From Aquifex aeolicus VF5 (GTDB lineage Bacteria; Aquificota; Aquificia; Aquificales; Aquificaceae), in assembly GCF_000008625.1 (NCBI RefSeq), contig NC_001880.1:1-32000 (forward strand): DNA of 32,000 nt, written 5' to 3'. The notes beneath the pieces are model-generated. The model did no database searches, was not told the DNA's origin, and was given only the letters and a program-made list of their open reading frames with translations. A program made the translations under genes and the position numbers. Below, piece after piece: positions 1,711-32,000 of the stretch (position 1 is the stretch's first letter; each line of letters starts with the position of its first letter).

Positions 1711-3174
1711 ATGAAAGTAATCAAGAAAACGGTTCTTCTTAAAGTTTACGAACCAAACAAAGGAAAAAAGGAATGTCTTGATAGAGTAATAGACCTTTAC
1801 GCTAAAACGCTTGATTTTTACCTTGACGTTATCAAAAAAGCGGGAATATACAGAATAGTAGCACTTGCGAGGAAAAAGAAAGAAAGAAAATCAGGAAGGA
1901 AAAGCAACTATGCACTCAATTTGCTTGAAAAGTTAACCGTTCCCACACAAGCGCATCCAAACCCCCTCTATCCCATACCCTTCAGCGTGAGAGTTGATAT
2001 AAGAAGGAGTGCAATAAATCAAGCGATAGGAATGGTATCAAGCTACGTGTCAAACTTAAAAAACTGGTATGAAGAAGGAAAAGAACTCGGACACTCAAAA
2101 CCCTCGTATCCTAATCCAAAAAGCTACTCTCCTCAGCTTTACAGCACTTTAGTAGAACTTGACGACTTGCTTGTAAGGGAAAACAAAGAGTTTCACTTTG
2201 TGAGGATAAAGGTTCTGAACGAAAAAGAAAGATAGGAATGGAAGAATTATCCCGTGAAGGTATACAAAAGGTTGTATGAACTCCTGGGCAGGGGATACAA
2301 ACCGTTAAAGAGTGCAAGGTTAATAAAACGTGGAAAAGATTACTACATAGGGATAACCTTGCAAAAAGCTGTCAAGGAAAAGAAGATAAAAAAACCGAGG
2401 TATGTAATAAACGTGGATTTAAACGTTCAGAGGAATTTAGCTTGCATAGGGATATTTGAAGTAGATTGGGAAAAAAGAGAAAGCAAGCTATACGGGATAA
2501 AGTTTGTAAACGGAAAGCTTTTGAGACTTGTATACAAAAGGGATTACTTGTTTGAGGAGATAAGGAAGAAACAGAGGCAGACAGGAAGGAGTCCACAGGT
2601 AGGAGATAATTCAAGACTGTGGAAAAAAGTAAACAATTTAAACAGAGACATAGCTTTAAAAGTAGCGAAAGAAATAAGCGATATAGCAAGGGAGTTTTCA
2701 GAGAAAGGAGAAGTTATAGTAGTATTTGAAAAACTAAAAGGACTCAGAGGTAGGAAAGGAAGAAGCAAGAAGCTAAACAGAAAGATAAACTTCTGGATGA
2801 GAAGGAAAATACAGGAGAGAGTAAAGGAACTCGGATTAGAAGAAGGATTTGGATTAGATTTTGTGTATCCGCATTATACGTCAAAGAAGTGTAGCAAATG
2901 CGGTTATGAGGGAGAGAGGTTCTCTCCCTCGGGTTCAAAAGCGTTGTTTTTGTGTAAGAAGTGTGGATATGTGGTAAATGCGGACGTGAATGCGGTATTC
3001 AATCAACACTTTCTTTACCTGTCCCATCTCCTAAATGGAGGTGGGAAAGCCCGCCCTGTGGTGCGGGTTGGGACTTCGCTGAAAAGTCCCTCACGTGAGG
3101 GACACAATCTAAGCGGAGTCCCTAAAGCAACAACTACCTTTTTCTATATTTCTTCACTTTTGTCTACATTTTAA
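1711..3174 (+). pseudogene. tnpB: TnpB (IS200/IS605 OrfB, IS1341-type RNA-guided nuclease) interrupted by one in-frame TAG at 2233-2235
   Basis: ORFs 1711-2235 and 2254-3174 are in the same frame and separated only by TAG. RuvC-like motifs are present: INVDLNV, VVVFEKLKGL, VVNADVNAVFN. Zinc finger CSKCGY...CKKCGY. No tnpA nearby. Confidence 0.8.
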
Positions 3175-3447: not shown

Positions 3448-3669
3448 ATGACGGTTAAACAAGAAGACAAGCTTCTCAGCACACCAGAACTTTTAGAGGA
3501 GCTTAAAAAAAGAGGAATAGATATAAGCAGAGTGACTTTATACTTCTGGATAAAAAAAGGGAAAATCCCTAAGAAATTCTATACCGTCAAAAAAAGACTT
3601 GAGAGGCAGTTCTATTACTTCAAACCCGAACTCGTAGAATTTCTAACCCAGAAACTCTCCTCCCGGTAA
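3448..3669 (+). CDS. small MerR/excisionase-like HTH protein (module 1)
   Basis: 73 aa. Paralogous to 8069-8290 and 29330-29548, sharing ELLEELKKRGI...YYFKPELVEFL. Confidence 0.65.
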   Translation: MTVKQEDKLLSTPELLEELKKRGIDISRVTLYFWIKKGKIPKKFYTVKKRLERQFYYFKPELVEFLTQKLSSR

Positions 3670-3706
3670 TTTTCAAAACTTCTATCCTAAGCCCTTTATC
3701 CCTTTA

Positions 3707-4044
3707 GTTCTCCCTATATAGGGAGAACCGATAGGCAATTACCTATTTTCTAATACATTCCTTGAAAGAAAAATTCCCCCTATTTAGGGAGAACTTGTTG
3801 TTTTGAGTATGATTTTTGAGGGGTTGAAAAGAAGTTCTCCCTAAGCACATTAACTTTATCTATACAGACAAGGAAAATTCTTGTTTTTAGAGTAATACCT
3901 AAAGTATTAGGGAGAACTTTTTAAAAGGTACTTGAAAATCAAAATATTACCCAAAGGTTCTCCCTAATTAGGGAGAATAAATTGTTTTTTTAAAATCTTT
4001 GCTCTTCAACTTTTCAGGATTTGTTCTCCCTATATAGGGAGAAC
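3707..4044. repeat. palindrome (iteron-like) array, module 1
   Basis: GTTCTCCCTATATAGGGAGAAC at 3707-3728 and 4023-4044. Degenerate full sites at 3773-3794 and 3957-3978. Left half at 3834-3843 and right half at 3908-3917, separated by a 64-nt AT-rich spacer. Confidence 0.85.
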
Positions 4045-4110
4045 TTAAACTTTTTATCTACTTTACTATTGCGACTATTTATCTACTTATCTAAATTTTG
4101 TAGGTAAGTT

Positions 4111-5064
4111 ATGGAGCATGAAAAAGCAATAAAAGAAATACTTGGAATAGACGACAGAATAAGGCTTTACGCAATAGAAAAATACGAGAAGAAGAAAAAG
4201 ACATTTTACAGATTTACGGGCTGGGATACTTACAAAAAGAAAATGGTGAAAGTACACATTCCCCGTAAGTTAGAAAAGGAAATCTTCTCCCTTTGGAAGG
4301 AACATCAGAAGGAGAAGCAACAACTAAAAGCTTTAGAACAAGAAGTCAAAGCACTCCTTGAAAAGTATAAAGACGCCGAAAAGATAAAAGAAGTTCTGGA
4401 AAGAATTGCTCAAGAGAGTATTACCAAAACCGCTTCAAGCCATGCATTAAAGACCTACACAGACAAAGCTAAAGAACTTTTCAAAAAGTTCGAAAAAGAC
4501 CTCATAAATCTCTACAAAGAAGGAGTTTTAAAAAGACTCACAATCCTTCAAGTCCTCTATCTCCTTGCCAATCTGAAAGAAATGTCAGAAGAACAGAAAA
4601 ATCCCCAGTTCCTCTTCAAGAAGGGAATAAGCACGATAATAAAGGTAGCAAAGAACGAAAGAATTCCGAATCCCTTCGGAACGCTAAAAAATGACTTTTT
4701 CCTTTCCGGGACACAAACTCCCTACGACTTTCTACTTTCAAGTTTCCTGGAAGAAGTCCTCGAAGAAACCTTGAGAGAGCTTCTTGAAAAAGAAATAGAA
4801 AAAATAGAAGCAGAAAGACGGGCAAAGGAATACGAAGAAAAAATGGAAAAGATAAAAGAAATAGTGGAGTGGTTCGAAAGCTTGCCCCACAAAATAAAGC
4901 AAACTGCAAAAGAAGTGATTTCTCAAAACACCGTGGAAGTAGCGGAAAAAATTTTGAAAGACATGGAAGATGGAAACTTCAGCTTGAAGGAAGTTCAGGA
5001 CTACCTTGAAAAGTCTACAAGAGAAAACCTTGTTGACTACTTCAGGTATCTCAAAAACCTTTAG
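4111..5064 (+). CDS. 317-aa conserved protein of module 1, putative initiator or array-binding protein (function inferred)
   Basis: Paralogs at 8785-9741 and 30009-30965. Shared blocks are LQVLYLLANLKE and NPFGTLKNDFFLSG.QTPYDFLLS. No Walker or HUH motifs seen. Confidence 0.8.
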   Translation: MEHEKAIKEILGIDDRIRLYAIEKYEKKKKTFYRFTGWDTYKKKMVKVHIPRKLEKEIFSLWKEHQKEKQQLKALEQEVKALLEKYKDAEKIKEVLERIAQESITKTASSHALKTYTDKAKELFKKFEKDLINLYKEGVLKRLTILQVLYLLANLKEMSEEQKNPQFLFKKGISTIIKVAKNERIPNPFGTLKNDFFLSGTQTPYDFLLSSFLEEVLEETLRELLEKEIEKIEAERRAKEYEEKMEKIKEIVEWFESLPHKIKQTAKEVISQNTVEVAEKILKDMEDGNFSLKEVQDYLEKSTRENLVDYFRYLKNL

Positions 5065-5876: not shown

Positions 5877-6824
5877 ATGGAACATTTCATAGACACCTAT
5901 CTTTACGAACTCAGGAAAGTAAGGGACGAAAAGACGATAAAGAAAAAGGAGTATCTTCTCAAGCACCTTCAGGATTATTCCGAGGACCTTCCCGCATTTG
6001 ACCAGTCCGAAATCTTCTCCTTCTATGAATACCTCAAAAACAAGAACCTCAAAGAAACTACCATAAGAGACATTCTCAAAGAAGTAAGGCTCTTCTACGA
6101 ATGGTTGCAGGAGCAAGGACTTAATTTGAAGTTTGACGAAAAGGCACTCAAAAAGCTATTTCAGTCTAAAAAGTCCCAAGAAGCCCTAAAGTCAAAGAAG
6201 AAGTATTACTCGGACGATGAGATAAACCTTATCTTGAATGCCATAAGGGGAGCTGTGGAGGGAATTTCTACAAAACACCCGATTTACTACATTCTTACGA
6301 TATTCCTGCTTTGTTCGGGACTGAGAATTTCCGAAGCGGTAAAGGTAAGAAAGAAAGACTTTGAAGTAAAGAGAATTTTGACGGAAGAAGGAGAAGAAAA
6401 GGAAGTGTGGTTTGTAAAAGTAAGGGAAGGAAAGTTCGGAAAGGAGAGAAAGGCACTTATCTACTTTTTCCGTCCTGAATGGAAGAGGATTTTTGAGGAA
6501 AGACTTAAAAAACTAAAGCCCGAGGACTTTTTCTTTACCTATGCGGTCAAATACCCAAAAAGCGTTAAAGTGTTCACACTTACGGATAAAACCGCCAAGT
6601 GGTTTTACTGGAAACTGGAAAAAGAATTAAGGGAAAAGGGATATGAGATTGAAGTAAACGCTCACAGGTTTAGAAATACATACATAACGAAGCTGGCAAC
6701 CAAAGGATTTCCTGTGAACCTGATAGCGGACTGGGTAGGACACTCAAAGATTTCCACTACTATGGACGTCTACATGGAAGCGGAGAGGGAAAAGCAATTA
6801 GAGGCTATTTTGGAGAGGATTTGA
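5877..6824 (+). CDS. tyrosine recombinase / phage-integrase family
   Basis: 315 aa. SGLRISEAV (box I Arg), HRFRNTYITKL, VGHSKISTTMDVY (His and catalytic Tyr region). Confidence 0.85.
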   Translation: MEHFIDTYLYELRKVRDEKTIKKKEYLLKHLQDYSEDLPAFDQSEIFSFYEYLKNKNLKETTIRDILKEVRLFYEWLQEQGLNLKFDEKALKKLFQSKKSQEALKSKKKYYSDDEINLILNAIRGAVEGISTKHPIYYILTIFLLCSGLRISEAVKVRKKDFEVKRILTEEGEEKEVWFVKVREGKFGKERKALIYFFRPEWKRIFEERLKKLKPEDFFFTYAVKYPKSVKVFTLTDKTAKWFYWKLEKELREKGYEIEVNAHRFRNTYITKLATKGFPVNLIADWVGHSKISTTMDVYMEAEREKQLEAILERI

Positions 6825-8068: not shown

Positions 8069-8290
8069 TTATTCGGAAAGTTTCTCCAAAAGATAATCCA
8101 CAACTTCGGGTTTGAAGTAGTAGAGCCTTTTTCTTCCGCCCAATCTTTTGATGTGCATGTATTCTTGAGGTATAAAGCCTCTCAAAATCCAGTAGTATAT
8201 GCCAGACCGTGTTATAGGAATTCCTTTCTTATTTAGTTCCTCTAAAAGTTCGCTCAGGCTTATTAGCTTTTCTTCCGTCATCTGAACCAT
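8069..8290 (-). CDS. small MerR/excisionase-like HTH protein (module 2)
   Basis: 73 aa, paralog of 3448-3669. Divergent from 8785-9741 across the array. Confidence 0.65.
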   Translation of the reverse strand: MVQMTEEKLISLSELLEELNKKGIPITRSGIYYWILRGFIPQEYMHIKRLGGRKRLYYFKPEVVDYLLEKLSE

Positions 8291-8343: not shown

Positions 8344-8721
8344 GTTCCGCTAAATTTTGGCGGAACTTACAAATTCCCTTGAAAAATAAAAACTTGACGA
8401 AAGCCTTTTCCTGTTCAGTTCTGCTAAAACTTAGCGGAACTATTATCAAGTTCCCCAAAATCAACGCCTTCATAAGTGGAAGATTTCGGTTCCGCTAAAT
8501 ATATATTGTTGTTGAAATTCCCTTAAAGTTTTGAATTTTTCTACAACAGATTTTCTTTTAGCGGAACTCACACGTACGCTTATAAGCTCTTTGAAAATCA
8601 AAGTCTTGAAATGGGTTATGCGTAGTTCCGCTAACTTTTAGCGGAACTTTAGTCTTTTACACTTTTCGGAGAAAATTGGAAATCAAGAGTTTGACGTTGT
8701 TCCGCTAATATTTGGCGGAAC
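8344..8721. repeat. palindrome (iteron-like) array, module 2
   Basis: 23-bp GTTCCGCTAA-N3-TTAGCGGAAC-type sites at 8344-8366, 8418-8440, 8628-8650 and 8699-8721. Left half at 8489-8498 and right half at 8558-8567, separated by a 59-nt AT-rich spacer. Confidence 0.85.
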
Positions 8722-8784
8722 TCTAAATTTTTGATTTACTGAAAATCTGTAATCGGCTAAATTATTAACGAGAAGGTAATTACC

Positions 8785-9741: not shown

Positions 9742-10130
9742 GGTAAGTTATTTAATTAACCTTACTTAGTTAACTAAGCTAATTTATTGCCGGTTAAGTA
9801 ATTTTCGAAAATGTTCTGAAGCTTGTACTCAGAAATCAAATTCCCCTTCAAGTTTTCCCGGAAACTCCTTAGAGCCTACTATTTATCCAGAGACAGGTAA
9901 AGAACCTGACAGAGAAGGGAAAGAGGGTAGATTCTTGCTTTGAGCTTGAAAGCCCTGCTTTACTCCTTAATCACTAAACGGGAAATGGAAATACCTGATA
10001 CCACGGTCAAATGATGTAAACTATTGTCAGCAAAGAAGAAAAGGTTGATTATTCAGAACTGGCTTCCGAGGCTTTCATTTTAAGGGAAAAGTTGAAAGTG
10101 ATAAAGTAGTTGACAATAAAGGAGTTTGTC

Positions 10131-10436
10131 ATGATATAGCCGAGCAATATAAAAACCGAGGAGGACGTAAAGGAAGCAATTAAGGAGATTTTCAAAGATA
10201 AGAAGGTTAAGGTTTACCTTTTTGGCTCGAGGGCAAGGGGTGAGAACACACCCAGAAGCGACCTTAATCTGGGCTTTCTGTCGGATGAGGATATAGGTTA
10301 TGAGCTTTCTCTTTTGAGGGAAATACTTGAGGAGTCAAACCTTCCCTTCTCGGTTGATGTTGTTGACTTATCAAAGGCGGGAAGGGAGTTCAGGGAAATG
10401 GTTTTAAAGGAGGGTAAACTTTGGATAAGTTTATAA
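10131..10436 (+). pseudogene. minimal nucleotidyltransferase (MNT-type) with in-frame TAG at codon 3
   Basis: SD AAAGGAG then ATG ATA TAG, then an open frame ...VKVYLFGSRARGENTPRSDLNLGF... This is the GS-x9-D-x-D-type motif, here DLN. No alternative start downstream. Confidence 0.65.
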
Positions 10437-10893: not shown

Positions 10894-10934
10894 AAGTCTA
10901 TTTTAAATCCCTTGATTTTCGAGGAAAATCTTAA

Positions 10935-11081
10935 TGGAAGTTTACCCCTAAACTTGGAAAGCTTGAAATACAAGCATTTCCCGAAGAAAGAGGTCTCAAA
11001 ACTTATTACTACCTGAAACCGCAAGTTGTGGACTACCTTGTAGAAAAGCTTTCCAATACTATCAACCGCCTGTATATTTAG
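10935..11081 (+). pseudogene. C-terminal remnant of a fourth module-type HTH gene
   Basis: Translates to ...FPEERGLKTYYYLKPQVVDYLVEKLSN. Compare RLYYFKPEVVDYLLEKLSE at 8069-8290. No start codon and no N-terminal HTH part. Confidence 0.5.
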
Positions 11082-12950: not shown

Positions 12951-13985
12951 TTACAGCCCCATCTCCGCCAACCTGTATGAAAAAGTAACCCTTCTCAACT
13001 TCTGTTCTGAAGTCTTCCCTGAACCTTTAAATCTTGTTTCGAGCACGTAAACAGCCTTTTCAGAGCAGTAAACTACATTCGGATAAAGGAAGTTATCATC
13101 CTCTACTGCATTTGAGCTGAACCACTCTTTGACTTCTTCAGGTATTGCAAAAGAGTGATCCTGTAAATAAAGGGCTACGAGTCCCATAACAACGGCCGTA
13201 GCCATTGATGTTCCTGCAAAGGGAACATAGTAATGACCTTCGGCACAAATGTAGGGATCGGAGTGAGATGAGAATTCTGAATTTGTGCTGCAGATAAAAT
13301 ACCCTCCTGCCACAATGTTTGGTTTTATCCTTCCGTTCCTTGTTGGTCCCCTTGAGGAAAAGTATGCTATCCTTCCTGCGTTGTAAAATGATTGCGTATC
13401 AAGTGGTCTGCTTGCAAAGGCTCCTACCGTTATAACCCTCTTGGAAGTTCCCGGATTCGTTACTGTAAAGGTTATCCCTCCTGTAGGATCCCTTTCGTAA
13501 TGGTCGCTGAAGGAACCGCTACCTGAGATTACCCACATTATCAACCCTGAGTTCATTGCACCGCAATTTGTTTCCCAGACCCTCTCATATCCGTTCGTAT
13601 CCTTTCCCGAATCCACTCCTACGCAGTAATCCGATCCAGGAGCACAGACATCAATTCTGTATTCGGATCCCTGAATGTACCAGCCCTCTACAAGAAGTAA
13701 CTCCGTAGTTCACGGATATACGAACTCTATCTTCAACTTCAGTATTACTGGCATGGATTCTTTTGCTTCTGTTGTTCCCTAGGGCAGCCACTACAACAAA
13801 CCCAGACCAGAAACGTTATCTATCTCCTTCTCTAGAAGGGAAGTTCCATCGTGAGATCCTGCAAGTGTTTCTACAGCGAGATTTGTAACTGAAGGCATTC
13901 CGAGAAGCTCTACATTTTCCTTTATCCATCTCAGCCCTATTATTACATCAGAATTCGTACATTCCGTAAGTTTATAAACTATCAG
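12951..13985 (-). pseudogene. subtilisin-family serine protease, frameshifted and 5'-truncated
   Basis: GTSMATAVVMG (catalytic Ser motif) lies in ORF 12951-13616. Upstream in other frames are GSHDGTS and FVVVAALGNN. No N-terminal Asp/His region before the junction at ~14000. Confidence 0.75.
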
Positions 13986-14021
13986 GGAAGATGTAATCTT
14001 TGATTTTCAATAAGTTATTAA

Positions 14022-14231
14022 CCTATTTTAAAGCTATCATTAACTCTCGGCAGTGGAAGTATAGGGCTGTTGTTCAAGCTTGATAGCTTCCTAAAAGTCA
14101 TTTTGCTTATAGTTGGAGTAGCTTTAACCACAGCTTTTGCAGGGCTTACGATAATCTTTTACCGAAAAGCTATTGACCTTCTTGAAGAGCTTGAGAAATT
14201 AGAAAAGAATAATGAGGCGAAAAATGTATGA
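14022..14231 (+). pseudogene. 5'-truncated copy of the 2-TM membrane protein family
   Basis: Open frame without a start: LTLGSGSIGLLFKLDSFLKVILLIVGVALTTAFAGLTIIFYRKAIDLLEELEKLEK. Homologous to the C-terminal two-thirds of 5460-5702. Confidence 0.5.
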
Positions 14232-14340
14232 TGTAATTGCTTACTTTGGAGCTATTGCTATTGGGATTATCTTACTGACTATGGCAATTGTGATGCTCAA
14301 ACTCGCCTTAGAAGAAGGTAAAAAGCCAAAAGCTAAGTAA
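14224..14340 (+). CDS. 38-aa single-TM peptide
   Basis: MYDVIAYFGAIAIGIILLTMAIVMLKLALEEGKKPKAK. Paralogs at 23312-23428 and 14683-14799. Confidence 0.5.
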   Translation: MYDVIAYFGAIAIGIILLTMAIVMLKLALEEGKKPKAK

Positions 14341-14359
14341 AAGAAGGAGAGGAAGTCTT

Positions 14360-14563
14360 TTGAGACTAAAAAGGGAGACTCTTAAAGAAACAGGAAAGCT
14401 TTTCTATGACCTCAGTAAAATTTCCGCAGGTTTGGGGTTGTTGCTTCCTTTCCTTAAAGGAGAGAACGTAAGCATATTTTCCGCTTTAATTGCACTTTTT
14501 TCTTCTCTTGTGTTTTTCGTAATAGGGCTAATTTTAATCAATAAAGGAGCTGAAAATGACTGA
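14360..14563 (+). CDS. 67-aa 2-TM membrane protein
   Basis: TTG start after an AAGGAGAGG SD. Paralog at 23084-23287 with the identical N-terminus MRLKRETLKE. Confidence 0.6.
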   Translation: MRLKRETLKETGKLFYDLSKISAGLGLLLPFLKGENVSIFSALIALFSSLVFFVIGLILINKGAEND

Positions 14564-14663
14564 CCTAATACTCTACTACCTTATACTTGTCGGAGGGCTG
14601 GCTTTAGCAGGATTGGTAGTTTACTTCCTTGCAAACAAGCAGGAAGCTAAAAAGCAGGGATAA
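14556..14663 (+). CDS. 35-aa single-TM peptide
   Basis: ATGACTGA overlap with the upstream stop. MTDLILYYLILVGGLALAGLVVYFLANKQEAKKQG. Paralog at 22984-23091. Confidence 0.5.
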   Translation: MTDLILYYLILVGGLALAGLVVYFLANKQEAKKQG

Positions 14664-14682
14664 GTACCGAAAGATATATGAT

Positions 14683-14799
14683 GTGATAGTCTACTTCGGG
14701 GCTATAACTTTAGCGGTCATATTTCTCGTTATGGGCATAGTAATGACAAAATTGATGATAGAGGAAAGGAAGAAAAGACAAAAACCCGAAACCAAGTAA
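14683..14799 (+). CDS. second copy of the 38-aa TM peptide, canonical ATG replaced by ATA (GTG 14683 possible)
   Basis: (I)YDVIVYFGAITLAVIFLVMGIVMTKLMIEERKKRQKPETK aligns with 14224-14340. Confidence 0.3.
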   Translation: MIVYFGAITLAVIFLVMGIVMTKLMIEERKKRQKPETK

Positions 14800-14802
14800 G
14801 CC

Positions 14803-15148
14803 TTACCTTCTCCAGAACTCCCACCACCTCTTTTGAGGCTTGGCTTCCAGCTTCTTTATCCTCTCCTGGAGCTCCCTGATGAGTTCGTCTTTCTCCTTTA
14901 GCCGTCCTTCAAGTTCCCCTAGTTTGTAGATGGCTTTCTGGAGTTGTTCCTGGGTCTTTTGATACTCGGAAAATGGAACGATTGCCCCGCTTACAGTTTT
15001 TCTCTCTTCGCCTTTGAGTTGTAGATACAGCATTTGTATGGTTCGGCTTACCGCTTCGGTCTTCAGAAATCCCAAGTGTTCTTGCTATCTCCTGAAGTTC
15101 TTGGGTTATCTCTCCCGAAAGTCTAAAGGTCTTTTTAACTCGCTCCAT
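14803..15148 (-). pseudogene. RHH-like plus coiled-coil protein split by a frameshift
   Basis: 14909-15148 starts MERVKKTFRLSGEITQELQEIARTLGIS. Near 15060-15075 the sensible sequence continues in the frame of 14803-15075 (TEAVSRTIQMLY... then a coiled coil). Confidence 0.45.
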
Positions 15149-15257
15149 AAATCCATCTTTAAGGGCGTATGGCTTTTGTATGACTTTTGTCGGGCCTTAA
15201 AGCCATACAGGAGGAGCTTGAAATTTCATAGCCATACATAGACGCTTGACTATTAAG

Positions 15258-15585
15258 TCCAGGGTTGCATTACGGAAAAGTCAGGTTAAATTATAAATCC
15301 GCTACTGTATGAGGGAAGGAACGGGATATCCCAACGAAGGGGAGGTTCCCCGATGATGTGGGATGGAAAGTCCCGTTCCTGAAATGAGGTTGGAGTGTTA
15401 AGTAACCTGTCCCATCTCCTACATGGAGGTGGGAAAGCCCGCCCTGTGGTGCGGGTTGGGGTTTCGCTGAAAGGTCCCTCACGTGAGGGACACAATCTAA
15501 GCGGAGCCCCTAAAGCAACAGCTACTAATGTCTACTTAATGTCTATGTTTTAGAGTAGCTGTTGCAACCACGAGTGTATAGTAAA
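15258..15585 (+). mobile_element. tnpB-less miniature derivative of the IS1341-type element
   Basis: Contains the 166-bp copy of the tnpB 3' structured end. Flanked by the 14-bp direct repeat GCTTGACTAT(T/C)AAG at 15244-15257 and 15586-15599. Confidence 0.45.
15405..15570 (+). ncRNA. stand-alone omega-RNA-like scaffold copy
   Basis: Near-identical to 3017-3192. Substitutions in one stem become G-T pairs on the + strand only. Homology ends at GTTGCAACCAC in both copies. Confidence 0.5.
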
Positions 15586-15619
15586 TGCTTGACTATCAAG
15601 GTAGAAAGGAAGCTTGTGC

Positions 15620-15943
15620 TTAGATAGGCTCAGTTTTGATTAGTTCAACAAGGGCTTTCAAAACCTTTATTGCTACCTGGATGTGAGGGTTCTTGGTTTT
15701 CAAATCCTTGACTTGTTCATATAGGTCGAGATATCTCTTATCCGCTTGTCTTATCTCATCCAGTAGCTGTTGCGGTATGTTCTCCTTATTCTTAGCTAAG
15801 TCTTCTCTTATTAAAAGGACCTGTGTTAGTTCAAAATCAAGAGCTGTGGGATAATCAACCTTAAAGTCTTCTATATCCGTGTAAAGTGCTTCGCTAACGT
15901 AAATCTTCAAGGAGTCTTCTAAGCTCTTTTCTAAAGTTTTCAT
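15620..15943 (-). CDS. hypothetical protein
   Basis: ATG at 15943 ([16 protein letters not shown]...). Overlaps the upstream 68-aa ORF. Confidence 0.5.
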
Positions 15944-16100
15944 TCTTATTCTTTCCAAGAATCATGCGAAATCCGCTTCCCGTAACCAGTTCAAAATCGT
16001 CCCAGTTTTTAGCTCCTCTCTCTAAAACGTCTACATACATCGTATATGCGTTTAGCACTTTTCTTAAGTTCTTCGTTTGGGTTTCTGCTGTAAGGCTCAT
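15894..16100 (-). CDS. hypothetical 68-aa protein, paralog of the ORF at 1-182
   Basis: [39 protein letters not shown]... Lies in the duplicated segment 15946-16150. Confidence 0.4.
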
Positions 16101-16150
16101 ACCGAGTTCCTCCCTGTAGAACTTTTATTTATCCTTAAACCGGTCCTTTA
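15946..16150. repeat. ~205-bp direct duplication, copy 2
   Basis: See 28-233. Confidence 0.8.
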
Positions 16151-16327
16151 GGGCTAAAAAACAGGCTTTTTATATGGCTTTTGTAAGGCCTTTTAGCCGT
16201 ATAAAATGACAAGCGCGGACGGACGGGATTAACAAGAAGACATTCAATTTTCAAAAACTGAAACTGCTGAAATTGCTTGGTTTTGGCTCGCTTCTTTCAG
16301 TTCCCTCGCTTAGTATACTAACTAAGA

Positions 16328-16397
16328 TTAGTAAGCTTTGTAATAAAAGCTATAATTATTAGCTAAATAATATAAGTTAGATGAGTAAAGATAGAAA
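16328..16397. repeat. ~70-bp segment, inverted copy of the parA-upstream region
   Basis: TTAGTAAGCTTTGTAATAAAAGCTATAATTATTAGCTAAATAATATAAGTTAGATGAGTAAAGATAGAAA closely matches the reverse complement of 31930-31999, with about 8 mismatches. Confidence 0.75.
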
Positions 16398-16474
16398 TTG
16401 GTTTAGAAAACATGCCTTTTACGGAAGTACTGAAAGCTCTTAAAAATATTTACGAGTAGTTTAAATACACTCTT

Positions 16475-17431
16475 TTACTCCCTCTTAAATTTGTTGTTTC
16501 TTTTCAGGATAAATTTAAACCTTTTGCTTATGGACACGCGTGAAACTTTGGAACCTTTATGATGCCACTCTATTATTCCCATTTCTTCCAGTTTATTTAA
16601 ATGAGCGTAGAAAGTTCTCTTCTTAAGACCTGAGAGATTCAGCAACTCGTCCGTCTTCATTCCGTACTCTCTGTCCTTCAAATGTTTAAGGATTGGTTCA
16701 AACTTGTGTAAAATTTCTTCATACTTTGCTTTCTCATTAATATACCAAGTAATTGCTCCATTTTTGTTTATGTAATAGTATATTTTTTCAAAAGGATAAG
16801 CAAAATTATGCTTTTCTATTGTCAATACCCGAAAGCTTTTCCCTTCTGTGTAGGCCTGCATAAAGGGAGTTGTTAAAAACTTAATTGTAGATACGCCCTG
16901 ATACCTGTCCGTTTTATTTTTTCCTGAACTTTTAATCGTGTGATGAATAAACATTATGTGACTTTCAGAATTTCTTGCTAACTTTCTTGTTTTTTTAATA
17001 AATTCCTTAACTTCTACAGGATCATAAATAGACTTTCCTTCATAAAAGGCAACAAAACTATCAACCACAACAAAATCGTAGCGTTTTTGTTCCAGTATCT
17101 TTTCAAAACTCCTGTAATCCGAAATGTCGTCCAGATCCATTATTTCCATTTCTGAAGTGCTTATTCTGTATCTTTTTCTTATTGGTTCTAACTTTTCTAA
17201 GATATCTTCCTTATAAAGTTCCAGAGATATATAGGCTACTTTCTTCGGTTCCTTAACTTTGAGTAAATTGTGAAATAAGTTCTTACCTGCACCTGCCAGT
17301 AGACACAAGTAAAGGCTTATGGTAGTTTTCCCTACACCTGAATCACCGTAAAGTATGGAAACGTATCCCTTCCTGAAAAACTCGTCAAAATTTTGCGCAC
17401 TGTTGCTCCTTTTGTATTCACTTAACCTCAT
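16475..17431 (-). CDS. RecA/KaiC-like (RepA, AAA_25-type) P-loop ATPase with C-terminal winged-helix
   Basis: Walker A GDSGVGKT and Walker B DFVVVDSF. The C-terminus [32 protein letters not shown] is wHTH-like. Confidence 0.7.
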
Positions 17432-20565: not shown

Positions 20566-20689
20566 TTTATCATTCTCCTAAAGACTGAGAATTCCCAAAC
20601 TTCATCACCAAAGAAGTTTGATATTTGAAAATCAATAGATTGGTAAATATACCTTTATAAACATATTGAAAATCAAAGGCTTAAAGCAA

Positions 20690-21603: not shown

Positions 21604-21712
21604 AATAGGTTGAAAATCAAGGGAACTGTTAATAACAGAACTTTACTGGAGTTTTAGAATCTCTTGAATATGCTTTGGCAATTATTTTATATGACATAAA
21701 CTGTAAACTTCT

Positions 21713-24246: not shown

Positions 24247-24795
24247 TCAGCGTTTACTTATTCTTATAACGGAAAACAGAGAGGTGAAAATATTTCTCTT
24301 TTCACTTACCCCTATAGTTTTTAAAAACTCCTCTTTTAGAATGAGATAACTGTCCTGTAAAAATCCATTATCAAATTCTTCAAGCGGTGTGAGATAACCC
24401 GCATCTTTTATCTGGACTTTATAACAAGGGACAAGTTTCTTTTGATCCTGTTTGTGATAATAACGGACCTCTTCAAATTTTTCGGGAGAGGTAAGGTAGA
24501 GTTTCTTCCATCCTTTGAGCATAGCCCTTTCAAAGTTCCCGTAATAATTTTCGGGAACGGGAATTCCCTCGTTAAGTAGAAAGTCTCTTGAAAAGTAAAG
24601 AGGATCTTCTTCTTTTAACTCAATCTTTTCAGGATTAACACATTTTAAAAACTTCAGAAAGAGAGAATTGTTTGCTTTTCCTAAAAGTTTATTTACGCTC
24701 TTTTTTGAAGAAATCTGAACCTCAAAAGGCAAGAAACACGCTCTCCTGAAAATCTGCCTTTCTCCCGTAAGATCAAAAAGATTACTGGTTAACAT
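24247..24795 (-). CDS. hypothetical protein, possibly the C-terminal continuation of the upstream P-loop NTPase
   Basis: ATG at 24795 overlaps the upstream stop by 14 nt. The frame is open up to 24828. IFRRACFLPFEV resembles the RR...iPF segment after Walker B in D5/P4-type NTPases (weak). Confidence 0.5.
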   Translation of the reverse strand: MLTSNLFDLTGERQIFRRACFLPFEVQISSKKSVNKLLGKANNSLFLKFLKCVNPEKIELKEEDPLYFSRDFLLNEGIPVPENYYGNFERAMLKGWKKLYLTSPEKFEEVRYYHKQDQKKLVPCYKVQIKDAGYLTPLEEFDNGFLQDSYLILKEEFLKTIGVSEKRNIFTSLFSVIRISKR

Positions 24796-25561
24796 AGCTC
24801 CTCTTTTTACTCCCGAGTCTCCACTCAATTCCTTTAGCTTTTAGCTTTGAACCAAGTGCTCTTTTATCCCTGAGATGTTCTGGTGGAACTTCGTCAATAA
24901 GAACAGGCATTCTGTTATCTATGTAAAGAATTGCCTCAAAAGTATTTGCCTTGCTGTTTCTGGTTTCCTTTAATTTTCCGTAGTAAATTTTTTCTGTCCC
25001 CAGAAGTTTTGCTATGAAATTAAGAAGCGTAGTTTTTCCGGCCTTAGGAGTACCTATTAAAAGGGAAAATACGGGAAATTTATTTATATCCTTCATTAAC
25101 TCAGTTGCTTTTTCCCTGACTTCCTTGAGAAATACAGAATAAAAAGAAAATATAATAGCCTCTCCGGTTAAAAATCTGTGTTCCTCACTCGTTTCTGTGG
25201 AAAGTTCTATATAATCCTTTATCGCAATTACAGTTTTCTTTACAGATTCCTCGGGAATAGAAATCTCAACAACGGATTTTCCATTATAAAAAATTTCTCC
25301 ATCGCAAACCGCTACGTTTACTTTTTCATCTTTATCTTCCCTTTTATTCTTCAAGATTTCCTGAATCTTTTGAGGAGATATTAGTATTTCCTTCTTCTTT
25401 TCCGCAAGCTTCTGAAACATTTCTGCGCTTTCTTCAACCGCTTTTTTTCTGACAAGAGACTTCTGAGCTTCGTTAAAAATGGGACTGTTAATCACTTTAG
25501 TATAGTAGTAATTGAGAACAACATTTTTTACTTTTTCGTTTTTCTCAAATTCCTTTATCAC
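24782..25561 (-). CDS. P-loop NTPase (Walker A GTPKAGKT, Walker B VLIDEV)
   Basis: ORF track entry. Its frame stays open upstream, without a start codon, to 25789 and overlaps the PLD-domain ORF. Confidence 0.65.
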   Translation of the reverse strand: MIKEFEKNEKVKNVVLNYYYTKVINSPIFNEAQKSLVRKKAVEESAEMFQKLAEKKKEILISPQKIQEILKNKREDKDEKVNVAVCDGEIFYNGKSVVEISIPEESVKKTVIAIKDYIELSTETSEEHRFLTGEAIIFSFYSVFLKEVREKATELMKDINKFPVFSLLIGTPKAGKTTLLNFIAKLLGTEKIYYGKLKETRNSKANTFEAILYIDNRMPVLIDEVPPEHLRDKRALGSKLKAKGIEWRLGSKKRSYVNQ

Positions 25562-25740: not shown

Positions 25741-26184
25741 TTACAAAAAAAACTCTTCCTGAGGTCCCCTCCAGGCTAAAGAGGATAAATTACCACTCCC
25801 TGCTACGACAATTTTCCTTTCTTCGGATTCAAGTATGTATAACTTTGTATGACAGTTTGGAATGTAGTAAACGGAGAAATCTTTAAACATGGCTTGTTTA
25901 CTTATTTCTTCTCCTTCTTTGAGGAACTTTTCCACTATAACTTCCAGGTTATAAAGTTCCCTTCCTTGTTCTTCTAACCCTATCAGGATTTCCACTTCCC
26001 TGTAATCCTTTAAAAGATCAAGGATACTCTTCAGAGAGGAGAAAGTTATAGCTTTTATCCTGTTGAATTGCCTAAGGTATTTCCCTGGAATATCGTACAG
26101 GAGTTTAATTTCCTCTTCGCCTATACTAAGAATAGGCTTTTTAGTATCTTTTTCAGGTTCCTCTGAAAAAAGTTGTTTGTTCAT
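25741..26184 (-). CDS. PLD/HKD-domain protein
   Basis: ATG at 26184 after a GGGAGG SD. The motif CHTKLYILESEERKIVVAGSGNLS fits H-x-K...G-S-x-N. It ends in a T8 run followed by TAATAA. Confidence 0.65.
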   Translation of the reverse strand: MNKQLFSEEPEKDTKKPILSIGEEEIKLLYDIPGKYLRQFNRIKAITFSSLKSILDLLKDYREVEILIGLEEQGRELYNLEVIVEKFLKEGEEISKQAMFKDFSVYYIPNCHTKLYILESEERKIVVAGSGNLSSLAWRGPQEEFFL

Positions 26185-26334
26185 TATACCTCCCAAACTA
26201 CTTAAAATTTCGCATCAGATAGTGCCTATTTCAAGCTAAGTCCTATCTTTTACTAAACTTACTTTTCTAACTTATATAAGTTATATTACTTATAAAACTA
26301 AACTTTATTTAAAGAATAAAATTCATTAGCACCC

Positions 26335-27954
26335 TTATACGACTTCTACCAGTAAAGGAAAAGGTACGCCGGTTCCGCTCACAATACCTTTACCGGTAGG
26401 TAGTTTCGGAAGAATGTTCGCTATATCACTTCCAGCAAATTCTACAAAAGTGGAAACTGTATCAATGTCAGATGCATTTATAGTTCTAAACATAACCTGA
26501 GTGTTTAATTGAGAAAGGATATATTTGCTAACCTGTGCTGGTCTTTGCGTTATTACCATAAGTCCTAAATTGAATTTCCTTCCCTCGGATGCTATCTTTC
26601 TGGCAAAAGTGAGAGAAAGGTTTTCTTTTCCTGCGGAGACATCCCCGAATCCCTTTTCTGGAGCAAAATTGTGCGCCTCTTCCAGAACTAAAAATCTTTT
26701 GGAAGGTTGTTTCTTATTCCTTGTAAAAAGCTCTTCCATTATCAGTCCTGCTATGTTTATTCTCGTTTGTGGATGCGTAATATTCCGGAAGTTAAAAATA
26801 ATTACTCTCTTTTCACTTTCTAGTCCAGAATTTATTGCATCAAATACAGTTGTTTGGTTAGATAAACTATTTTCACCGTAAGTTTCTTTAAGGTAAGTGG
26901 TTATTTCTTGTATTTCCTTAGAACCCGCATTTAAACTTTCTATCAAATTAACAAGTGTTTTCTTAGATAAAGAAGTAAGTCTAAGAGAGGGTTTTATGTT
27001 CTGTGAAAGTTTTGATCTATTTTCCCTGGCCTGGTGTGAATTACCGCTTACCAGTGAAGGGTATCCTGCTTCTTTTATAAGTTCTTCCACTTCCTCTGGA
27101 AACACAGGGAAAATTGTATCTTCAAGTTCGATATGTTCTATCTAGTTTTCATCTATATAACTCTTTAAATCGTTGAAGTATTCTCCGTGAGGATCAAGTA
27201 CATAAACTTCAACTTCTTTATCGGATTCAAGTAAACTGGAAATAAACCTTTTTGTAAAATAGCTTTTTCCTGAACCGGTAGTACCTAGTACGAGCATGTG
27301 TTTACTTATCACCTCGTTTGCATCTACAAACACATCTATGTCAGAATTCTCAATCACGCCAACTTTTACAGGAACTTCCATATCTCTCCCGGAAAAATTC
27401 TTCTTGAGTATTTTCCCCAGTGTTTTTTCTGATATTTTATAAACAGGTTCTCCTACATGGAAGGGATTTCTTAATATATCTAATTTTCCATCCTTTAGTA
27501 TACCTATTACGTCCGCGGTTGCTATTTTCAGTTTATTTCCATTATTGTTGAGGTAAGCGTAAATAGCCGCCTTTTTCCATTCGTCATCTTTTCCTTTAGA
27601 AAAAATGGTTTTAAAGTCCTCTACGGGAGCAAAAACACTGGATTCCTGTGAAGTGAAGGGATTCGCAAAAAATCCCATATCGTAAGCAAAAATACTTGTT
27701 ATCTTTCCGAGCACAATACCTTCCTGTAATTTCACTTCAACGTAAGAATGTAAACCTATATCATCATTGCCTACCAGAATAAACTCAAAGGATTGAGGTT
27801 TTACAGGATTTACAGTAAATCCTAAAAGATCATCTCCAAAACTTTCGGAATACTCTTCCTTAATTTTTTCAAAGTATTCACGTAGTTTTTTAATATGTTC
27901 ATCACTGCCGTCCGATTCGTAATAAACTCCCGCTTCTATATTGCCCGTTGACAT
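26335..27954 (-). pseudogene. herA: HerA/FtsK-superfamily (DUF87) ATPase interrupted by one in-frame TAG (27144-27142)
   Basis: Walker A LGTTGSGKS, VLDPHGEY, Walker B FLVLEEAHNF and ITQRPAQVSKYILSQLNTQVMFR. ORFs 27142-27954 and 26335-27105 share one frame. Confidence 0.8.
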
Positions 27955-29329: not shown

Positions 29330-29548
29330 TTAGACGGAGAGCTCCTGAACAAGAAAATCTACCACTTCCGGTTTGAAGTAGTAGTAATTAACAAGTCCTC
29401 TTCTCTTTATCCTTACCAATTCACCGGGAATGAAGCCTCTCTTTACATAACGGATTAAAGTTCTATCGCTTATCTCTATACCTCTTTCTTTAAGTTCTCT
29501 TAGAACCTGCGTACTCGTAAGATATCCCTGAATTCTTATTGCCGGCAT
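29330..29548 (-). CDS. small MerR/excisionase-like HTH protein (module 3)
   Basis: 72 aa, paralog of 3448-3669 and 8069-8290 (YYYFKPEVVDFLVQELS). Confidence 0.65.
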   Translation of the reverse strand: MPAIRIQGYLTSTQVLRELKERGIEISDRTLIRYVKRGFIPGELVRIKRRGLVNYYYFKPEVVDFLVQELSV

Positions 29549-29605: not shown

Positions 29606-29949
29606 GTTCTCCTATATATAGGAGAACTACTTTGAGCTCGCTAAAAATCAAGTCTCAGACACACCACTTGAACTCCGGAAGTTCTCCTAGCTATAGGAGA
29701 ACCGCTACTTAACTTATTGATTTTCAAGCACTTTCTGTTTAGTTCTCCTAGAAACATTTATATCTTTTTCCATATACAAAAGCTTTTTGTTATTGGAGAA
29801 GTAATAAGTTATATAGGAGAACTCTCCTTTCAAGTTTTTGATTTTCAATATAGTTCTCCTATATATAGGAGAACTTTTGTGATTTTTTCTATTCTGTAAT
29901 GCCCGATTTTTAGTTTGGTCATAAGTGGTTCTCCTAGAACTAGGAGAAC
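29606..29949. repeat. palindrome (iteron-like) array, module 3
   Basis: GTTCTCCTATATATAGGAGAAC at 29606-29627 and 29853-29874. Variants at 29681-29702 and 29928-29949. Left half at 29742-29750 and right half at 29814-29822, separated by a 63-nt AT-rich spacer. Confidence 0.85.
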
Positions 29950-30008
29950 CGACAAAGCAAAAAAATAGATAAAATCGAGGAATGCGACACTAAAATAGTT
30001 TTTAGGAC

Positions 30009-30970: not shown

Positions 30971-31174
30971 TTACGCATTCTCTGAGAGTATTTCCGTTAT
31001 AAGATCCTTCAACGTTTTCCCTTCCTTTAATGCCCTCATTTTAAGAGAAAACCACACATCATAAGGAAGCTCTATCAGAAGTTTCTTAACCTGTGGTTTT
31101 TCTTCCCCTTCTTTTATCTTTGCAGAAGCTATAAATTCCTCGGGTTTTTTTGAAGGTTTCTTCGGTATAGCCAT
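30971..31174 (-). CDS. RHH centromere-binding protein (ParG-like)
   Basis: 67 aa with a basic N-tail. The C-terminal KKLLIELPYDVWFSLKMRALKEGKTLKDLITEIL is RHH-like. Immediately downstream of parA. Confidence 0.6.
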   Translation of the reverse strand: MAIPKKPSKKPEEFIASAKIKEGEEKPQVKKLLIELPYDVWFSLKMRALKEGKTLKDLITEILSENA

Positions 31175-31204
31175 TATGTAACCTCCTTTATTTAAATTAC
31201 TAAG

Positions 31205-31846
31205 TTAAGCAATATTAATTATATTACTAATTTCATTTATTAAGCTTTCAAGCTCCTCTATTGCTTTTTTATCGTTCATTTCAAGCACTCCCTTTCCTTC
31301 TTTTACAGAGTTTCTGTAAACTACTCTTGAGTGCAATCTTGAATTTAATACTCCTACGGAGTACTGCTGTGCTAATTCTCTCAGGGTTTCCTCAGCTTCT
31401 TTCACGATGTTAGACTTTATTACTTGATTAAACAGTATATAAGCCGGGATATCTGCAAAGGTCCTTGCTTCTTGCAGAACCTTCAGGGTATCTTCTGTTG
31501 CCCATACATCGTAAACACTTGGGAGAACAGGTATTATCAAAGCTCCGTTTGATGCTGCAAGAATCGCGCTTCTGAAAACTGCACTATCTCTTCCCCCTAC
31601 GTCGATAACTACAACATCAAAATTTTCAAAACCCTTAATGTCTTTGTGAATTGTGGGCTTTGTAATACCTATTGCTTTAATGTCGTCTTTTTCCCTGAGT
31701 GCCCTGAAGTTCAAACTACTTTCCTGGATATCCGCATCAATAAGTAGAACACTTTTTCCTCTGAGAGAATATCCTACGGCTAAATTACACGCAACAGTAC
31801 TTTTCCCTACTCCTCCCTTCTGATTACCTACCACGATTACTTTCAT
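31205..31846 (-). CDS. parA: ParA/Soj-type partition ATPase
   Basis: Deviant Walker A GNQKGGVGKST, LLIDADIQ, VVIDVGG. 213 aa. Confidence 0.85.
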   Translation of the reverse strand: MKVIVVGNQKGGVGKSTVACNLAVGYSLRGKSVLLIDADIQESSLNFRALREKDDIKAIGITKPTIHKDIKGFENFDVVVIDVGGRDSAVFRSAILAASNGALIIPVLPSVYDVWATEDTLKVLQEARTFADIPAYILFNQVIKSNIVKEAEETLRELAQQYSVGVLNSRLHSRVVYRNSVKEGKGVLEMNDKKAIEELESLINEISNIINIA

Positions 31847-31929
31847 AATGTTATTTATTTTAGCAATATTTATTAGATAAGTTAGCTAACTAAAACTGAT
31901 TTCAATATTTGATTATATAGATATGCCGC

Positions 31930-31999
31930 TTTCTATCTTTGCTTATCTAACTTATGTTGTTTAACTAATAATGATAACTTTTATTACAAAGTTTACTAA
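31930..31999. repeat. parA-upstream segment, inverted partner of 16328-16397
   Basis: See 16328-16397. The match may continue past the window edge. Confidence 0.75.
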
Positions 32000-32000
32000 C

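Follow-up and report, generated by a model that had tools for sequence, protein, structure and literature searches.

Three modules of a winged-helix gene, a palindrome array and an orphan 318-aa protein on the Aquifex aeolicus plasmid ece1: candidate maintenance cassettes with origin-like features

Within a 32-kb stretch (G+C 36.8%) of the Aquifex aeolicus plasmid ece1 (39,456 bp), which we refer to as the window, the same three-part module occurs three times, each copy consisting of a gene for a small helix-turn-helix (HTH) protein (H1-H3 in modules 1-3), an array of palindromic DNA sites, and a gene for a highly charged protein of 317-318 amino acids (P1-P3). An initial annotation of the DNA had pointed to these modules; all three are present where it placed them, and the positions of the open reading frames (ORFs) confirm all six genes. 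The observation is real, and the anatomy of the modules is richer than first described. The modules are most likely a new kind of plasmid replication or maintenance unit, built from site-specific DNA-binding proteins and their repeated sites, and we consider it probable that each of them acts as a self-contained nucleoprotein cassette.

Results

Architecture of the arrays

We compared 13 modules, the three on ece1 and ten from hot-spring metagenomes for which the DNA was available (L001, L002, L003, L004a, L004b, L007, L008, L009, L016 and L018). The relatives stem from Icelandic and Yellowstone samples. In all 13, the elements of the array follow a common order: palindromes A and B, a half-site pointing rightwards, a core, a half-site pointing leftwards, and palindromes C and D, the last of which is separated from the start codon of the 318-aa gene by 46-71 nt. 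The arrays had originally been described as stretches of ~340-380 bp with six palindromes each, of which the length holds, but the count does not, as each array contains four full palindromes and two lone half-sites that face each other. The core between these half-sites measures 59-66 bp and is 71-83% AT, directly so in nine of 11 modules; the remaining two conform when the outer one of their two candidate half-sites is taken.

The sites are specific to their module. When both strands of the window were searched for each 10-nt half-site, allowing at most one mismatch, 9-10 copies were found in its own array, compared to 1.5-3.4 expected by chance in the whole window, and the observed totals were reached in none of 100 shuffles. 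The array-specific half-sites are confined to their own array in the window, and no half-site type was found in the array of another module, in agreement with the earlier statement that the site differs per module. There are at least eight half-site types (GTTCTCCCTA, GTTCTCCTAT, GTTCCGCTAA, GTTCTCATAC, GTTCTCTAAG, TTCTACCAT, GTTCTAC[CG]C and GTTCCCTATG), among which the outer GTTC is nearly constant. Between module 1 and L004a, 99 of 100 site positions are identical, compared to 164 of 319 positions (51%) in the remainder of the array, and the corresponding numbers for module 3 and L001 are 96 of 110 (87%) and 143 of 328 (44%). Since the sites are far more conserved than the rest of the array, we conclude that both the sites and their spacing are under selection.

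Other readings of the array were considered and rejected. The T-runs that might suggest intrinsic terminators belong to symmetric A/T-tract flanks (AAAA-GTTC...GAAC-TTTT) found on both strands. A CRISPR array is incompatible with symmetric palindromes and two oppositely oriented half-sites in a conserved 4+2 dyad, and neither this reading nor that of the array as an RNA found a match in Rfam, which returned nothing for the whole window. Tandem Repeats Finder reported no repeat in the arrays.

Repeats, promoters and a generic motif

Downstream of palindrome D, and before the -10 box of the 318-aa gene, lie two to five direct repeats with a period of 8 bp, such as TATTTATC TACTTATC followed by TAAATT in module 1, and TCGGACAA GTGGACAA ACGGACAA TAGGGACA followed by TAAAAT in L016. 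The periodicity is reflected in a lag-8 autocorrelation of 0.50, compared to 0.325 +/- 0.021 in shuffles (z = 8.6; reached in 0 of 2000), with harmonics at lags 16 and 24. Further copies flank palindrome A in L001, L003, L004b and L016, and weak ones do so in module 3. For the 318-aa gene, the best sigma-70-like match on its strand is located after palindrome D and ahead of the start codon in 10 of 11 modules, with the -10 box ending 9-21 nt before the start codon, and in modules 2 and 3 the promoter of the HTH gene abuts palindrome A. With promoters at both of its edges, the array thus lies between promoters rather than over them; a central promoter like that of parC in R1 was rejected, as the best promoter-like sites are at the array edges.

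Independently of module type, the motif TTGAAAATCAA (TTGA-N3-TCAA) occurs in eight exact copies in the window, where 0.23 are expected, four of them within the arrays and four in other intergenic DNA. Its 9-mers are present in 8 of 11 arrays, compared to at most 5 in shuffles, and in 19 of 22 cases it begins either 13-15 or 23-24 nt past the GAAC end of a specific site, two offset classes that differ by one helical turn. Six of the eight exact ece1 copies extend to WATCAA-N4-TTR, the consensus of integration host factor (IHF) (WATCAANNNNTTR; binomial 4e-7), whereas many copies in the relatives do not fit this consensus. The copies outside the arrays are found at 14000-14010, 20625-20635, 20666-20676 and 21610-21620, two of them 41 bp apart, and this intergenic distribution suggests a plasmid-wide or host DNA-binding factor.

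Which protein reads which element

The identity of the palindromes appears to track the small HTH protein. A recognition helix of the form RV.[LI]Y is paired with GTTCTCCC in module 1, L004a, L018 and the first domain of the HTH protein in L007, one of the form.R[ST][LI].RY with GTTCTC[CAT][TA]A in module 3, L001, L004b and L016, and K[AS]TL..W with GTTCTAC in L002 and L008. In a Mantel-type comparison of 10 modules, the distance between palindromes was correlated with that between the HTH proteins (Spearman 0.41), but not with that between the N-domains of the 318-aa proteins (-0.02). The comparison is weak, because the modules are not independent and an HTH identity of 44-49%, the range found pairwise among H1-H3, fails to separate same-site from different-site pairs. 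The first description had implied that the 318-aa protein reads the palindromes, which these correlations do not support, and had proposed that protein and site co-diverged, which is true of the three ece1 copies (P1-P3 61%, P1-P2 36% and P2-P3 40% identical) but fails across the 10 modules compared. As an example, L007 shares the GTTCTCCC half-site core with module 1, while the N-domains of its 318-aa protein and of P1 are only ~20% identical.

The N-domains appear to fall in with the 8-bp repeats instead. Those of class B, found in four modules, go with nGACAA repeats, yet with three different palindromes, and the trio with class-A N-domains has TCTACTT-type repeats. In the simplest model, the palindromes would be read by the winged helix, and the 8-bp repeats by the N-domain of the 318-aa protein.

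Several members of the family are mosaics, in which a near-identical C-terminal two-thirds follows unrelated N-terminal segments of ~115 aa, and this N-terminal segment, the array and the HTH gene have been exchanged as one block. The N-domain is also encoded as short stand-alone proteins (P0026-P0042), some of which may be contig-end fragments, and once as a tandem duplication (P0028, 174 aa).

An orphan 318-aa protein

P1 is 100% identical to the 'Uncharacterized protein aq_aa07' of Aquifex aeolicus. Among 5.8 billion proteins, a word-indexed search returned 19 relatives of P1, and an exhaustive profile search of 1.84 billion cluster representatives gave 27 members of the 318-aa family, so that the family is confined to a few dozen Aquifex-like sequences: all members with a named source are from Aquifex, except for one on a contig binned as the metagenome-assembled genome of a Nanobdellati archaeon. 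In an alignment of 16 members, the sequence blocks first noted in the protein (LQVLYLLAN.KE and G.LKNDFFL..TPYDFLLS) are invariant or nearly so.

In the AlphaFold2 model (pLDDT 84.5, pTM 0.48), residues 1-50 form a helix and a three-stranded sheet, followed by a long helical hairpin and then by a helical core, which is compact. After a loop of low confidence, the chain continues as a long helix of acidic character and ends in a helical bundle. Conservation is lowest in the N-domain, which is basic (mean net charge +6, pI 9.6), and highest in residues 128-210; the most conserved motif, NPFGTLKNDFF, is carried by the low-confidence loop. An origin of the N-domain from the HTH protein was rejected (profile-profile probability of only 5%).

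The family had been called one of unrecognised type, without an initiator motif, and our searches support both statements. It has no match in Pfam, PHROGs, NCBIfam, PADLOC or the sequences of the PDB, where no hit had E < 0.02, and Foldseek with the model identified no relative and no known fold family (best E 0.47 in the PDB, and 5.6e-3 in BFVD with a TM score of 0.13). The protein has no P-loop, actin or tubulin match, and neither a ParB-N/HTH nor a ribbon-helix-helix fold was matched, the small proteins of the modules being winged helices. The 318-aa protein is an orphan in both fold and sequence.

The small winged-helix protein

The Pfam family HTH_17 (PF12728) scores H1 at 26.0, H2 at 14.8 and H3 at 14.5 bits, all below the gathering threshold of 27, and a near miss for H1 alone; in addition, there is a match to phrog_66 (E = 0.0025). 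The 28 members of the subfamily form a tight group of Aquifex type. The predicted topology of a helix-turn-helix, a beta-hairpin wing and a C-terminal helix is found in the AlphaFold2 model of the tandem homologue P0044 (pLDDT 82.9; helices 11-20, 27-36 and 58-71, strands 42-47 and 50-55), the second half of which repeats the same secondary-structure pattern. PADLOC defence models matched neither of the module proteins.

In some relatives, tandem-fused winged helices of 130-150 aa replace the small gene (L007 1542-1994; L009 2914-3345, encoding P0044; also P0059 and P0071). The tandem HTH of L007 coincides with a palindrome spacing widened from N6 to N9, and in L009 the palindromes are perfectly symmetric despite two differing HTH domains. 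Foldseek searches with the tandem model retrieved only dumbbell-shaped or generic winged-helix matches, which are not informative about the mutual orientation of the domains.

Genomic setting

No conserved gene was found downstream of the 318-aa gene among the modules examined, their neighbours being toxin-antitoxin pairs, a recombinase, an AAA+ protein or ParA. As there is no conserved cargo, and the specific sites occur nowhere else, the complex formed on the array is probably itself the product, which indicates a maintenance role in cis.

Next to module 3, the plasmid carries a complete type Ib partition pair (30971-31846), with palindromes of the TTAGCTAA / TAAGCTTA type upstream (31847-32000) that are unlike the module sites. 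ParA adjoins only module 3 on ece1, and the relative L004 has the same arrangement after its module. Since this pair has sites of its own, partition would already be provided for. The 17.9-kb relative L014 contains two modules and ParA, and none of its genes has a recorded Pfam match to a known replication-initiator family.

The searchable literature contained nothing relevant on ece1 maintenance or on aq_aa07, aq_aa15 and aq_aa38. The plasmids in PLSDB, from which ece1 itself is apparently absent, gave no match by megablast or tblastn, no relative of the modules was found among the viral contigs of IMG/VR, and the small contigs of relatives that were checked for circularity had no terminal overlaps.

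Coordinates and further features of the window

Table 1 Positions of the module elements and associated genes in the window
Feature	Position	Strand	Description
H1	3448-3669	+	73-aa winged-helix protein, HTH_17-like; ORF; co-directional with P1
Module 1 array	3707-4044	.	Palindromes A 3707-3728, B 3773-3794, C 3957-3978, D 4023-4044; form GTTCTCCCTA-TA-TAGGGAGAAC
Module 1 lone half-sites	3834-3843 (>), 3908-3917 (<)		Flank 64-bp core, 73% AT
Module 1 generic motif	3932-3942		TTGAAAATCAA
P1 promoter region	4054-4097	+	TTGCGA (4069-4074), 17 nt, TAAATT (4092-4097); overlapped by 8-bp-period repeats TATTTATC TACTTATC; TTTATCTACTT farther upstream
P1 (aq_aa07)	4111-5064	+	317 aa
H2	8069-8290	-	73-aa winged-helix protein; ORF; divergent from P2
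H2 promoter-like site	8325-8298	-	TTGACA, 16 nt, AAAAAT; abuts palindrome A
Module 2 array	8344-8721	.	Palindromes A 8344-8366, B 8418-8440, C 8625-8647, D 8699-8721; form GTTCCGCTAA-N3-TTAGCGGAAC
Module 2 lone half-sites	8489-8498 (>), 8558-8567 (<)		Flank 59-bp core, 78% AT
Module 2 generic motifs	8591-8601, 8676-8686
P2 promoter-like site	8735-8763	+	TTTACT, 17 nt, TAAATT; just 3' of palindrome D
P2	8785-9741	+	318 aa, GTG start; most diverged paralogue
One-mismatch generic motif	10912-10922		TTGATTTTCGA; near HTH remnant
Fourth HTH gene remnant	10983-11054	+	24 C-terminal codons, 15/24 identical to the end of H3
H3	29330-29548	-	72-aa winged-helix protein; ORF; divergent from P3
H3 promoter-like site	29587-29559	-	TTGAAA, 17 nt, TATTAT
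AAAAAATAGA copies	29590, 29960		Bracket module 3 array
Module 3 array	29606-29949	.	Palindromes A 29606-29627, B 29681-29702, C 29853-29874, D 29928-29949; form GTTCTCCTATATATAGGAGAAC
Module 3 lone half-sites	29742-29751 (>), 29813-29822 (<)		Flank 61-bp AT-rich core
Module 3 generic motifs	29717-29727, 29838-29848
P3 promoter region	29950-29996	+	-10 box TAAAAT 29991-29996; CGACAA / GCGACAC repeats
P3	30009-30965	+	318 aa; public annotation is a shorter 265-aa version (P0007)
Ribbon-helix-helix protein	30971-31174		67 aa, Arc-like; partner of ParA
ParA	31205-31846		212 aa; NCBIfam ParA_partition 172 bits

The orientation of the HTH gene relative to the 318-aa gene differs between the ece1 modules (Table 1) and also between close relatives. 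L018 has the same site type as ece1 module 1 and a closely related 318-aa protein, with the HTH gene in the opposite orientation: it is divergent in L018 and co-directional in ece1 module 1 and L004, so the small gene must have been inverted during evolution. In L004, the co-directional HTH gene has, upstream of its promoter, an extra split pair of module-1-type half-sites (1054-1063 and 1118-1127, ~66 bp apart). This pair is missing from ece1 module 1, which has a transposase fragment at the equivalent place. Immediately upstream of module 1 is a TnpB / Cas12f-like fragment (2254-3174), a tyrosine recombinase gene (5877-6824) follows 0.8 kb downstream, and public short-read assemblies of ece1 break ~360 bp upstream of H1 and inside array 1.

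A decayed fourth HTH gene had also been proposed; what is present is a remnant comprising the C-terminal 24 codons rather than a whole decayed gene. Between module 2 and this remnant, 10120-10430 (+) resembles a coding region for a nucleotidyltransferase of the MNT type, without a long ORF, and is probably a decayed toxin-antitoxin component.

Further away from the modules, the minus strand encodes a 318-aa ATPase of the AAA_25 / DnaB-C / RadB-like kind with a C-terminal winged helix (16475-17431), and the flanks of this gene (near 16310 and 17430) are very AT-rich and rank among the DNA of lowest stability in the window. Over lengths of 60-100 bp, stability reaches its minimum at 26227-26335, a stretch that lies between a PLD-like nuclease gene (25741-26196) and a HerA fragment and includes 3.6 copies of the 9-bp tandem repeat TAACTTATA (26268-26299). 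The HerA-type ATPase is split over adjacent ORFs (26335-27105 and 27142-27954, minus strand), which correspond to its N- and C-terminal halves, and is probably a frameshifted pseudogene, or else a real split. Finally, the ~2.8 kb at 13620-16470 contain no ORF longer than 112 aa, have a G+C content of 41-44%, above that of the rest of the plasmid, and gave neither an Rfam match nor a tandem repeat.

Discussion

A model of the cassette

In the anatomical model that we regard as probable, winged-helix dimers would occupy the four palindromes, and single subunits the two half-sites that face inwards. The TTGAAAATCAA motifs would be bound by a factor common to all modules, perhaps an IHF- or HU-like bending protein of the host, and because these motifs lie one or two helical turns from specific sites, the array of ~340 bp would be folded around the 59-66 bp AT-rich core. 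The basic, cassette-specific N-domain of the 318-aa protein would bind the 8-bp repeats over its own promoter, providing autoregulation, and, in some modules, also their copies at the opposite edge of the array. All specificities share one conserved core of the protein, including the loop NPFGTLKNDFF, and this core would contact a common partner.

As to function, our first choice is a plasmid replicon unit, comprising origin, initiator and specificity regulator, because of the genomic setting, the mosaic exchange and the length-conserved AT-rich core between inward-facing half-sites; we hold this choice tentatively, as a serious possibility that falls short of probable. The array would then be the origin and the AT-rich core the place of opening, the 318-aa protein, as an initiator without enzymatic activity, would recruit the replication proteins of the host, and specificity and copy control would be set by the winged-helix protein. 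The three ece1 copies would be replicons, or remnants of replicons, that are orthogonal to one another and have come together in a single plasmid, and the N-terminal mosaic is what one would expect if cross-reaction between co-resident elements is harmful. An origin-like character is plausible in view of the AT-rich core, the phased motifs of bending type, the lack of a conserved cargo and the presence of a separate ParA system. It is more doubtful whether the modules represent, in a deep-branching hyperthermophilic bacterium, a previously unrecognised type of origin and initiator, in which a fold-orphan, non-enzymatic initiator reads 8-bp repeats and a separate winged helix reads the dyad field, whose palindromes place subunits so that they face the AT-rich core. 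Belonging to that same joint proposal, and to be read with the same reserve, is the notion that natural swapping of cassettes has given rise to eight or more orthogonal specificities, of which a single plasmid carries three.

A number of observations weigh against a replicon. The 318-aa protein has no match to winged-helix initiators (Rep_3/RepA/TrfA), HUH Rep proteins, primase-polymerases or AAA+ proteins. The cores rank at the 1.3-2.7 percentile of the least stable 60-bp windows and are thus easily melted, but not extreme, some other intergenic stretches being less stable. DnaA boxes of the E. coli type (TTATCCACA-like) had 12 one-mismatch matches, none of them in the arrays, although the Aquifex consensus may differ. 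The cumulative GC skew has its minimum near module 3, but gene orientation is a confounder here, and two or three active origins would be unusual for a plasmid of 39 kb. The AAA_25 ATPase and a DUF927-like fragment (24782-25561) are other replication candidates on ece1. Finally, the assignment of proteins to sites derives from few independent lineages, in which neighbouring DNA is co-inherited, and the nGACAA repeats resemble -35 hexamers.

Alternative explanations

A different kind of maintenance unit would be a centromere, with the array as partition site, the winged helix as centromere-binding protein, and the 318-aa coiled-coil protein as an adaptor or motor-less factor, similar to the single-protein Par system of pSK1, or coupled as an adaptor to the neighbouring ParA. 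In parC, tubC and parH, arrays of repeated sites typically lie next to the gene of a small DNA-binding protein, partition systems also exchange specificity cassettes, and the 318-aa protein is rich in long helices and carries no enzyme motif. Module 3 and L004a, moreover, directly adjoin ParA and its small ribbon-helix-helix gene, but ParA thereby has a partner of its own, with different palindromes, and no NTPase belongs to modules 1, 2 or most of the relatives. The boxes of 8-bp period resemble the ParG sites of TP228 (PMC3130281). The array centre contains no promoter, unlike parC of R1, and three partition sites with three specificities would be of no obvious benefit to one plasmid. On balance, we find a centromere unlikely.

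We would assign a similarly low likelihood to a pure transcriptional switch of the immunity or exclusion type, where each of the two proteins would control the other via a long operator field, with an output in trans, for instance by silencing or excluding related plasmids. The promoters of both genes at the array edges, the repeats overlapping the promoter of the 318-aa gene and the extra split site upstream of the promoter of the L004a HTH gene would all fit such a switch, as would the position of the modules among toxin-antitoxin genes and the diversified specificity cassettes, which recall lambdoid immunity regions. However, ~340 bp with six sites, phased bending motifs and an AT-rich core of conserved length exceed what a switch needs, there is no conserved output gene, and the specific sites are found nowhere else in the window, leaving the switch without a regulon.

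A field for site-specific recombination, with the HTH_17-like protein as directionality factor, the palindromes as core sites of the recombinase encoded at 5877-6824, and the generic motif in the role of the IHF sites of attP, is very improbable: despite the excisionase-type fold of HTH_17 (phrog_66), the IHF-like motifs, the mosaic cassettes and the tyrosine recombinase gene 0.8 kb downstream, such a recombinase is near module 1 only and beside none of the relatives, the palindrome spacers are symmetric, just 2-6 bp long and variable between copies, the 4+2 layout is unlike any att site, and the 318-aa protein has no recombinase fold.

Significance and relation to known systems

To our knowledge, the Aquificales have no genetic system, and a defined minimal replicon of ece1, should the replicon interpretation be true, would be a starting point for a shuttle vector in hyperthermophilic bacteria. 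The set of at least eight natural, thermostable and apparently orthogonal protein-site pairs of simple geometry could find use in synthetic regulation. Should the 318-aa protein prove to act in initiation or segregation, a fold-orphan family would join a field where nearly all plasmid maintenance proteins share a few folds. The invariant flexible loop of the protein suggests contact with a host component, which could be identified. The interest is modest if the modules are only regulatory.

Among known systems, iteron-type theta replicons (pSC101, R6K, RK2/TrfA and P1 RepA) have a rep gene beside repeated Rep sites, together with an AT-rich unwinding element, IHF and DnaA sites, and autorepression. 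The ece1 modules, which are known from sequence, likewise have a gene for a non-enzymatic protein of ~300 aa beside its own field of repeated sites, an AT-rich segment, IHF-consensus-like motifs phased with the sites, and repeats over the promoter of the gene; both show diversified specificity, and in both, one plasmid can combine several units. They differ in that the ece1 protein has neither the WH1-WH2 Rep fold nor a Rep Pfam family, that the main sites are dyad palindromes rather than direct iterons, that there is a second, dedicated winged-helix protein, and that DnaA boxes of the E. coli type are lacking.

In the archaeal oriC, inverted origin recognition boxes flank an unwinding element beside orc1/cdc6, and Sulfolobus has three origins with separate initiators. 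The polar half-sites facing each other across an AT-rich segment of fixed length, the adjacent cognate gene and the possibility of several origins with separate specificities on one replicon are all reminiscent of this arrangement, whereas the bacterial host, the lack of an AAA+ initiator, the four extra palindromes and the two further motif classes set the ece1 modules apart.

The small protein shares with the HTH_17, excisionase and MerR-N proteins the predicted order of helix, helix, beta-hairpin wing and helix, and HTH_17 is the best Pfam match of H1. It departs from typical HTH_17 proteins in its sub-threshold scores, its tight subfamily and the tandem-fused versions of L007 and L009, and unlike for Xis or BldC, the ece1 sites are palindromes and not head-to-tail direct repeats.

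Staphylococcal pSK1 encodes a single Par protein, combining an HTH with a coiled coil, that acts on repeats upstream. The centromeres parC/ParR of R1, parH/ParG of TP228 and the omega heptads of pSM19035 are arrays of short repeats bound cooperatively by small dimers and double as operators, which we count as a likeness to the ece1 arrays. The parH site of TP228 has tetramer boxes with AT-rich spacers (PMC3130281), and the 8-bp period of the ece1 repeats is similar to that of the ParG boxes. In contrast to these centromeres, the ece1 module has no partner NTPase, its reader would be a winged helix and not a ribbon-helix-helix protein, and the array lies between promoters. To Par of pSK1 (mentioned in PMC11500499), the Aquifex protein showed no similarity in sequence or fold in our searches, and it differs in its beta-sheet N-domain and its separate HTH partner; what the two have in common is a coiled-coil-rich, NTPase-free protein beside repeats upstream of its own plasmid gene.

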